Shown piece by piece: positions 3,569-6,500 of a stretch of DNA of 64,000 nucleotides. The DNA is taken from contig CM097885.1 of the NCBI GenBank assembly GCA_044892525.1, positions 29,700,001 to 29,764,000 on the forward strand, given 5' to 3'. Position numbers and translations under genes: made by a program. Numbering within the stretch: the first letter of the stretch is position 1; each line of letters begins with the position of its first letter. The DNA comes from Schmidtea polychroa (taxonomy: Eukaryota). The notes beneath the pieces were generated by a model. The model made no database searches. It worked only from the letters and a program-made list of their open reading frames with translations, and was not told the DNA's origin.

Positions 3569-6500
3569 TATAGAAGGGCAAAAATAATATTAACAAAGCC
3601 GAATTCGGAAAAGGAATCCAAAAAGGAATTCTCAACATTTGACTTTGCAAACTTGAGGAGATTCTTCATGATATCGATAATATATCATGAATCAACCCTG
3701 GAGAATAACTCAAGATTCATGCACCTAACAGAAACTATACTGAGGAAATCATCTCCAGACCTAAAGGACATAAACTGGAACAATTTTCTGCACACATATA
3801 AAGTCCCAGACTCTTGGCTCAGAAAGCTAAAAGATACACCGAAATTCCCACAACTGAGGAAAGAGGATCAGTACCTCATCAGTATCATCATAGATACCTT
3901 GAGGTCATATAGATTTGACTGCCAAAAGGATCAGACAGATGCTATCCAATTCTTCCAGTTTACGATAAACAGAACAATCGTAGGGATCACGAAATGGTTC
4001 TCACTAAGAAGGAGGATTGAACCTTTTAAAAGAGAGACAAATGATGTTCAAATAAACACCCAAAATGAGATAGATCAAGGAATCCATGAAACAGATGTAA
4101 TGGAGTCAGAAACAATGGAAGTACACATTGAAGTAGAGGAAAAACATGACGATTCAATTTCCTCCTCTGATATGGTAGATGCAGTCATTGAGGAACCAGT
4201 CCAAGATACTGTGGACCTGCCAATACCAATAGAGCCCACAGTTGTCGAAGAACCACAGATAACCACAAACAACGAAAATATAGAAATTAGTGAAACAGAT
4301 AGAGATTTGGTAGAGAAACACACAACACCTGCACCAACATCAGTCAGCAAATCAAAACAACAACCAAAAAATATCCGGTCCAAGAGCATAAAGAAAAGAA
4401 GACAAGTGGATGACACCGAATACCAAGAAAACACAAAGGATAACAAAAAAATACGTACCGGTGGAGGACCGTCAACGGCAAATACTCCACTGACCAATCT
4501 TATTATACCAAATATGAAAATCAACGATGAACTAAAAATCCAATGCAATTGCAAAAAAAATAGATACTCGTACTCAACAGATACCAATGCCACCAAACAC
4601 TTCAAAGAGTTACATCCACAATCCGGAGATCCAATAATAGAGTGCGGAATATGCAAAGCCATCATCACTATCAATGAAGCAATAGAACATATAGCAGTCC
4701 ATAGAGAGAACAATACAAAAGAAAGGAACATACAGCAGCCCGCAATCAAACCAACAGAGGAGGACATCCCTACGGAGACCAGCTGACTATCACAGACAGC
4801 GATAGAATATTACATAAAATTTCTATCGCTCAGTATACCTACTCCAAACACCGTGGCCTATATCAAACCAACATGTGCCACGGACCTGATAGAGAATAAT
4901 AAGGCTGGTCTCTACAGTAACATCCATTTGGATACAATCGTGGGCTCTGATAGGGTCGTATGGCTGATCCATTGGAAACTCTGTCACTGGTCAATATACC
5001 TAGCGGACAAAGAAAATAGGGAGTCGGTAATTCTTGATACTGATGACCAAATATCCGAATCAGAGAAAAGTACAATAAAGGCCAAAATGGATGAAATACT
5101 AAGGATGACTACACAGGATCAAGCCCCATTCAACAGAATATCAATTGACGAATACCCCAAACAAGATAACGATTATGATTGTGGAGTGTTCGTTCTTCAA
5201 TATATAATGGACTTCTTAGAAAATCCAGAGAGACCCTTATTCAATATGCCTGATTCAGATAAAATAAGAACACAAATTACAACGAGCATACTAGAAGATA
5301 TCAAAAAATACAAAAAATGCAACAATGAAACAAAGAATGAAGACATAGAAGACGCCATAAATCAATTTAGACTACACCAATTATCAATAAATGACATACT
5401 TAATTGGTTCAAGAACAGATTCCTAAAAGATCAAAAGCCGAGAAGAGCATGCAGAAGCGAAAATAAAAAACCCAAGCTATGCTCATACCAAATACAGAGA
5501 TTATATACAATAAACTCGGGCAAAGCAATAATACAAATTCACAATGAAACATGCAAAGTTATTGACCTAACATCAACGGCAATGGACCTGCATTTTATAA
5601 GAACAAAGCCTCCAAAGATACAAAATATGATTAATATTACGGATAAAAGACCAGAATGGGAATCATCAAAGCCATTTACAGAGAAAGATGTATCCATTGG
5701 AATAAAAAACAGCAAAGATGCAGCACCAGGAGAGGATGGAATTCCAATAAGAGCATGGAAAGAATGGATGCCTGAAGACCCATTAACTCCAATATTCAAC
5801 AAAATAATAGAATCCAAAAACATCCCAGATTCATGGAAAACTTATGTTACAAAGTTAATTAAAAAACTAGGCAAAAGTAACCAAGCACACAATCCGGCAA
5901 ATTGGAGACCAATAGCATTAATGCCCACAAGTTATAGAATTTTTATGAAAATCCTTAACAAAAGAATTCTCCAATGGATCCACGAACACAGGTTAATTTC
6001 GAAATGGCAAAAGGCAGTGAATATATCCAATGGGTGTGATGAACATAATTACATCATCACTGTTCAAAAAGAAAAGCCCAACAGAAAAAGATACAAAGGA
6101 TGTGAATGCCACCTAGTGTTCTTGGATCTTGCGGATGCCTTCGGCAGCATTCCACACAAAGTGATCTGGCATACTTTAGAACAGAAAGGCCTAAATAAAA
6201 ACACCATAAGCCTATTGCAAGAATGCTATAAAGACTGTCACACTATATATCAAAGTGGTGACACCAGATCAAGCCAAATCAAACAAGTAAAAGGTGTTAG
6301 ACAAGGATGCCCACTATCAATGACCATCTTCAGCCTCTGTATTGAATATCTAATACAAGCTGCAATAAATAGTGGGAAAGGAGTCGAGATAGCTGGAGAG
6401 AAAATAAGCATTTTAGCATATGCGGACGATCTCGTTCTTATGGCACCACAACACTATCAAATCCAAGAAATGCTCAACATAATAGTGGAACAAGCAAAGA

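Follow-up and report, generated by a model that had tools for sequence, protein, structure and literature searches.

Gly-Gly motif ahead of the zinc fingers of LIN9-like retroelements in Schmidtea polychroa: a candidate self-cleavage site for an Ulp1-type protease probably reached through a leaky UGA

The 64,000 nucleotides of the Schmidtea polychroa genome analyzed here (assembly GCA_044892525.1, contig CM097885.1, positions 29,700,001 to 29,764,000 of the forward strand; hereafter, the window) hold pieces of non-LTR retroelements (LTR, long terminal repeat) that encode an Ulp1-like protease, and our subject is a short Gly-Gly motif that recurs in them ahead of the zinc fingers and is a candidate cleavage site for that protease. 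The window is a mosaic of long blocks repeated at 99 to 100% identity, made up of AT-rich spacers and broken retroelement pieces of several families in which Pfam recognizes Ulp1 (PF02902) and reverse transcriptase (RT) domains. Rfam identifies three 28S ribosomal RNA (rRNA) fragments, all on the minus strand. One of them (14880..15524) carries the junction, near 15476, at which a family C element starts antisense to the rRNA, immediately 3' of ...CCAGTTATCCCTGTGGTAA; the 28S junction of LIN9_SM of Schmidtea mediterranea lies after ...TTATCCCTGTGGTAA in S6 Fig of PMC4640811. The window elements thus occupy the LIN9_SM site of the 28S ribosomal DNA (rDNA) in the same antisense orientation, and they share with LIN9_SM the restriction-like-endonuclease non-LTR architecture. 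N-terminal zinc fingers and RT are present in the window, and the C-terminal CCHC and KPD...DIK (restriction-like endonuclease) motifs come from a by-eye reading of the complete relatives L031, L032, and L050. On target site and architecture, we assign the window elements to the LIN9-like group of the R5/LIN lineage, NeSL clade. Every copy in the window is broken, none being intact, and the self-cleavage proposal concerns the families and not these copies; since the array is repeated at dozens of genomic locations, the window copies are not independent of one another.

The elements are laid out in one long frame that runs from a 5' coiled coil through a conserved ORF1 domain, a low-complexity linker, the motif, the zinc fingers, an in-frame TGA, the protease, and RT to the restriction-like endonuclease. 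In the family A copy under study, all on the plus strand, the ORF1 domain (3602..4042; 150 residues, family not assigned) is alignable across families, lies upstream of the linker, and found no match in Pfam or Atlas. The motif KIRTGGG follows at 4448..4468 (K at 4448, IRTGGG at 4451-4468, Gly-Gly codons at 4460-4465), and two C2H2 zinc fingers occupy 4544..4702 (finger 1 from 4544, finger 2 from 4643; model pLDDT [predicted local distance difference test] ~75-88). The Ulp1/C48-like protease spans 4763..5257 (Pfam PF02902, E 2e-11), with its His at 4985-4987 followed by Trp and its Cys at 5180-5182, and the stop, TGA-CTA, lies within it at 4784..4789. RT (5879..6649) completes the copy, which ends near 7346 without reaching the endonuclease. 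The copy is an A/C recombinant: up to 5218 it resembles one dispersed family (89%), and from 5168 to 7346 it is 93% identical to family C, the switch falling inside the protease (5168-5218). Exchange between families is also apparent in L031, whose ORF1 part is common to family D (33230-33566).

An earlier note on this DNA had reported Gly-Gly motifs about 15 to 30 codons before finger 1 in the otherwise unalignable linkers of A, A', C, and D, and one at a different position in segment G, and all five are where it placed them, on the plus strand. Besides the family A motif, of which further copies start at 19135, 40523, and 63609, they are KLRTGG in A' (14613..14630; LRTGG at 14616-14630), KLIGGG in family C (16135..16152; LIGGG at 16138-16152), RLIGG in family D (33689..33703), and LTIGG in segment G (18536..18550). 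As independent examples, A, C, and D stand and the other two fall: A' is a decayed family A copy with a 1-base deletion, and hence a frameshift, directly after the Gly-Gly, and segment G, which lies a few codons past a 28S-derived TGTGGTAA remnant, represents the coiled coil at the 5' end of an element; the equivalent ends of other families have IGED or IEED, and the Gly-Gly of segment G is probably fortuitous. The linkers are indeed dissimilar, the 42 flanking residues averaging 7.5% identity (range, 2-17%). From the first Gly to the first Cys of finger 1 there are 28 codons in A, 20 in D, and about 23 in the window copy of C, whose dispersed relative L031 has 26.

Across the genome, we sampled 70 stretches of up to 10 kb each, the best-scoring search candidates, and collapsed families at ~75% protease identity; the resulting family list is incomplete. 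Seven finger-first families combine an intact His-Asp-Gln-Cys set with an intact linker, an eighth active family (L042) having been left out because the linker is absent from the copies fetched. Gly-Gly lies 20 to 28 residues before finger 1 in six of the seven (IRTGGG in A, KLIGGG in C, RLIGGT in D, GLIGGS in L050, KMKGGG in L052, and NPTGGD in L055), and the seventh, L032, has NLTGAG 24 residues before it. Upstream ORF1 sequence from 11 families holds 6 Gly-Gly pairs in 7,912 residues, or ~3.4% per 45-residue interval, so that by sequence count Gly-Gly before the fingers exceeds chance; the families being related, this is conservation and not seven separate events. When 9 ORF1 sequences are aligned (505 columns; identity to the first sequence, 14-24%), no column is invariant except that of the first Gly and those of seven zinc ligands. 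The Gly codons themselves differ synonymously (GGT GGA, GGA GGA, GGG GGG, and GGA GGT). On the sequences compared, the better consensus is probably (M/L/I)xG(G/A/S), often followed by G, which is adenain-like, rather than a strict di-glycine; it fits six of eight active LIN-type elements (all except A and L055). A possible second site, SLGGSST(P), occurs far upstream in the long ORF1 of L032, L055, and L042 (residue 309 in L055).

The earlier note had proposed a test of whether the motif travels with the protease, and in the families and proteins compared it does. Seven families carry a dead protease, having lost catalytic residues (Cys in 7/7 and His in 6/7). They retain the four fingers, the protease fold, and the TGA, and none of the seven has Gly-Gly in the interval before the fingers. 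A quick RT tree of 43 rows, from which L054fam052 was removed as a different element in the same locus, joins the dead families in one clade (support 99) nested within a clade (99) that includes active members, and this nesting places the loss of catalysis and the loss of Gly-Gly on the same branch. The dead domain probably serves a non-enzymatic role, because the fold, the four fingers, and the TGA persist in long intact frames. The dead clade (L065, L067, L082, L089, L093, L095, and L098) is large and dispersed.

A second contrast comes from outside the genome. Searching 1.84 billion representatives yielded 150 matches, for a set of 152 proteins with P0001-P0004; 12 distant matches were excluded. 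We scored the 39 proteins with at least 45 residues before finger 1, checking the state of the protease with Pfam and setting aside two with an incomplete protease motif, one with Gly-Gly and one without. Gly-Gly occurs 15 to 60 residues upstream of finger 1 in 8 of 12 proteins with an active protease versus 3 of 25 without a protease (Fisher p 0.0014, uncorrected for kinship), and the adenain-type consensus is matched by 7/12 versus 2/25. A separate NeSL-type clade among these proteins has ITGG, IRGG, LRGG, and LAGG, and NeSL-type database proteins carry I/L/V-x-GG 34 to 57 residues before finger 1. The sole protease carrier among 80 metagenome loci, the unrelated contig L101 (35% identity, 41.5% G+C), has LVGSG 21 residues before finger 1.

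The motif also occurs where there are no fingers at all. In a protease-first, finger-less lineage (L074, L075, P0026-P0031, P0038, P0045, P0119, and P0122), an active protease is followed by one or two dead copies and then by RT, with Gly-Gly between the active and the dead protease. Of 11 rows, 9 have it 44 to 49 residues past the catalytic Cys and two have LKGSG and LVGRG instead, whereas Gly-Gly falls anywhere 15 to 70 residues after the Cys in only 2 of 37 other protease-bearing rows. Since the lineage bears the motif behind its protease with no finger after it, the motif does not belong to the finger and tracks the enzyme instead. All four non-Gly-Gly variants (LTGAG, LVGSG, LKGSG, and LVGRG) match the second form of adenain site, (M/I/L)XGX-G, and the sequence suggests that the motif is a linear protease site.

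The enzyme itself has the hallmarks of clan CE. A 12-row profile finds yeast Ulp1 as its best match of solved structure (PDB 1euv, E 4e-13), and the predicted model (pLDDT 76.8) has the Ulp1 fold, with Ulp1 as the best Foldseek match (E 1.7e-7) and SENP folds also found. The His-Asp-Gln-Cys set of family C48 and the Trp after the His are invariant in 12/12 active rows. The family D protease (34004..34486, plus strand; Pfam E 4e-13) keeps its catalytic residues and has Leu at the Trp position of the Ulp1 WLND motif. By position, that Trp corresponds to Ulp1 W448, which serves as one lid to the Gly-Gly tunnel. Most NeSL proteases have a Trp at this place (PMC4640811, S5 Fig), and the Trp after the catalytic His has been tied to the di-glycine preference of clan CE (PMC6759571). 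In a complex prediction, the family D protease and its own 33-residue linker scored 0.01, which we count neither way; in the single-chain model the linker is not ordered (pLDDT <50 for residues 1-40).

The earlier note took the element for a polyprotein, yet it is not one open frame, for a conserved in-frame TGA separates the fingers from the protease core and a polyprotein would need stop-codon readthrough. The stop occupies the WLND Trp codon in 12 of 17 families, including C (TGA-CTA, 16444..16449, plus strand, the same protease position as in A). The next codon is CTA in 7, TGG in 4, and CTC in 1, and CTA makes up 7 of the 8 Leu codons following a stop versus 467 of 2,228 Leu codons overall (21%). 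Among the five families with a sense codon at this place, four have one other in-frame TGA (D, L055, L074, and L075) and the fifth is incomplete. L055 has TGA-CAA-CCA, as does its relative L056, and its old stop place now reads CGA-CTA. Family D has TGA-CGG (33605..33610, plus strand) upstream of the Gly-Gly, known from one amplified copy only, which may be a mutation in that copy or a relocated leaky stop. L101 has TGA-CTA at WLD. An in-frame UGA followed by CUA or CGG, with the frame conserved on both sides, is the sequence signature of type II readthrough, and the elements show it. The contexts of their stops agree with UGA-CUA, UGA-CGG, and CAR-YYA, which are described readthrough contexts (PMC3159437); in human cells, Trp and Arg are inserted at UGA during readthrough (PMC5133446).

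In the profile alignment, Ulp1 similarity starts upstream of the TGA, and the first ATG beyond it is residue 101, past the catalytic His at residue 67; AUG reinitiation could therefore not yield an active protease, and readthrough or a change in the RNA would be needed. A genetic code in which TGA means Trp was rejected, TGG being used 14 to 29 times per frame. No conserved 3' stem-loop was found among the 17 stop contexts, z falling below -3 in three (A, -5.9; L089, -4.2; L075, -3.3). The strong hairpin predicted directly past the family A stop (4787-4896) is absent from most families. P0001, P0002, and P0017-P0024 begin inside the protease, as an upstream stop would explain, though truncation would too.

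From this anatomy and co-occurrence we infer, with moderate confidence and from sequence, that the element's Ulp1-type protease cuts its own polyprotein at the motif, and that this polyprotein is probably made by TGA readthrough. [quoted passage not shown] The protease would then cut after the small P1 residue of (M/L/I)xG(G/A/S), so that the ORF1 module comes off and a finger-protease-RT-endonuclease protein of ~1,200 residues remains (L031 and L050), shaped like a single-ORF R2-type protein. Trimming of ORF1p in trans may also occur and would yield a two-finger peptide of ~105 residues. In the finger-less sister lineage, the motif sits just behind the active protease, so that there too a cut would separate the RT module from what precedes it.

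Several observations weigh against this proposal. Because the dead families form one clade, the in-genome contrast amounts to a single event. Gly-Gly is missing from the scored interval in 4 of the 12 active outside proteins (two of these have just 51 residues upstream, and P0153 has LVGG 92 residues upstream), and P0161, which has no protease, nevertheless carries IRGG. At the position where adenain requires M, L, or I, families A and L055 have residues of the Arg/Pro type; the WLND Trp position holds Leu, Arg, or Tyr in three active families; and a strong 3' hairpin accompanies just 3 of the 17 stops. Ulp1 and the SENPs normally need folded SUMO for cutting, and no folded SUMO precedes the motif. 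Moreover, all 12 active rows have the Glu that aligns to Ulp1 E455, a SUMO contact, and the dead ones have lost it (the Asp at the D451 position is variable), a pattern that fits a SUMO substrate too.

The main rival is accordingly host deSUMOylation, in which the enzyme strips SUMO or ubiquitin-like tags from host proteins to counter silencing and the Gly-Gly is no substrate but a decoy or co-inherited. Its nearest solved structures are Ulp1 and the SENPs, and the lack of the motif in 4 of the 12 active outside proteins speaks for it. Removal of host SUMO is plausible because the presumed SUMO-contact Glu is kept and because SUMO silences interrupted rDNA units in flies. The latter is reported for Drosophila (PMC7676866), and 28S is where these elements insert. 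What this explanation leaves unaccounted for is a motif that three architectures keep at the edge of a domain, one of them behind the protease, and that is absent from the dead-protease clade. We regard it as unlikely to be the explanation of the motif, and as an activity that may coexist with self-cleavage.

A flexible hinge or turn that opens the zinc-finger module, unrelated to proteolysis, would suit the constant 20 to 28 residues to finger 1 and the predicted disorder of the linker. Against it, Gly-Gly is absent before the fingers of all seven dead-protease families and of 22 of 25 protease-less proteins; the finger-less lineage has the motif as well, and a hydrophobic residue is favored two places before the first Gly. 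These points make the hinge improbable. Cleavage by a host SENP or deubiquitinase that recognizes LxGG, rather than by the element enzyme, draws on the likeness of LRGG, LIGG, and QTGG to the C termini of ubiquitin and SUMO and on P0161, with its motif and no protease. Host cleavage would decouple the motif from the element's catalytic residues, whereas both were lost on the same branch, and the GA and GS variants suit a dedicated enzyme better, so that we hold a host enzyme to be quite improbable. Chance, or a purine-rich RNA signal that translates as Gly, is suggested by the shortness of the motif and by GGA-rich codons in several families and is very improbable given six of seven families against ~3.4% expected, the variable third codon positions, and a Gly that is the only invariant ORF1 residue besides the zinc ligands; chance is largely refuted for A, C, and D and stands for segment G.

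That NeSL-clade elements have an Ulp1-like domain has been recognized since 2000, and our analysis gives this domain a defined candidate site, a consensus, and natural dead-enzyme controls. In the parts of the literature available to us, neither a cleavage site nor readthrough was found described for these elements; the original NeSL-1 and R5 papers or Repbase entries may already propose self-processing or note the stop. The account of LIN9_SM in PMC4640811, in the sections on targets and phylogeny, does not mention a cleavage motif, readthrough, or a stop codon, nor do those sections name a protease substrate for NeSL or Utopia elements. Nematode NeSL elements and Utopia-1_TSP likewise place an Ulp1-like protease with the same W-L start before RT (PMC4640811, S5 Fig), but they target spliced leader and U2 genes and their Trp is a sense codon.

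Adenain, the clan CE protease of adenovirus, processes precursors of the virus at linear sites of the form (M/I/L)XGG-X or (M/I/L)XGX-G (PMC4246237), and both forms occur here, though the element enzyme is nearer to Ulp1/SENP, both by sequence and by fold, and its presumed substrate is part of the same protein. The fold, the His-Asp-Gln-Cys set, and the His-Trp pair of the element enzyme are shared by yeast Ulp1 and the human SENPs, which have a Gly-Gly tunnel (PMC6759571). Their substrate is folded SUMO, whereas the element Gly-Gly follows a low-complexity linker; if our reading is right, an Ulp1-like enzyme has shifted from folded SUMO to a linear peptide. The stop has a candidate counterpart in gammaretroviruses, among which murine leukemia virus has its protease immediately after the leaky stop. 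In Gag-Pol, an in-frame leaky stop sets the ratio of structural product to enzyme polyprotein (PMC5009743), and alphaviruses and tobraviruses use type II UGA-CUA/CGG readthrough in the same contexts as the elements (PMC3159437, as above). The elements differ in being non-LTR, in having a cysteine protease, in using UGA, and in placing the stop inside the protease fold. In non-LTR elements of the apurinic/apyrimidinic endonuclease type, 2A peptides also split an N-terminal piece from the RT protein by recoding (PMC3708506), but by ribosome skipping and with no protease.

If the proposal is true, non-LTR elements mature a polyprotein with their own protease. To our knowledge, such maturation has so far been associated with LTR elements and viruses. 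These site-specific rDNA integrators would then be active in a form that begins at the fingers, which matters for expressing them. We suggest more tentatively, at somewhat less than even chances, that a non-LTR lineage reinvented the retroviral Gag-Pol logic with a captured SUMO protease, in which a leaky UGA supplies the Trp of the Gly-Gly gate, only readthrough yields active enzyme, and maturation is adenain-like, and that the Ulp1 domain generally serves for self-processing in NeSL, Utopia, and R5/LIN elements.

The surroundings of the elements have features of their own. The window array is built on an amplified tandem unit of ~20 to 23 kb that contains dead retroelement pieces and one 28S fragment and is found in genome G000 on C1 near 29.7 and 271.4 Mb and on C19, C23, C37, C82, C94, C99, and C143. 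One spacer block is inverted (32189-33217). An in-frame ATG for ORF1 (MNAWPPQASYPCG) is supplied by the antisense 28S flank (15436-15480), and in L032 and L055 the first 80 to 140 residues are duplicated, including a degenerate copy of the rDNA-derived 5' sequence. At L050 and L070 (G000 C4, 76.7 Mb, and C232), ~20 near-identical tandem copies of one family have intact frames.
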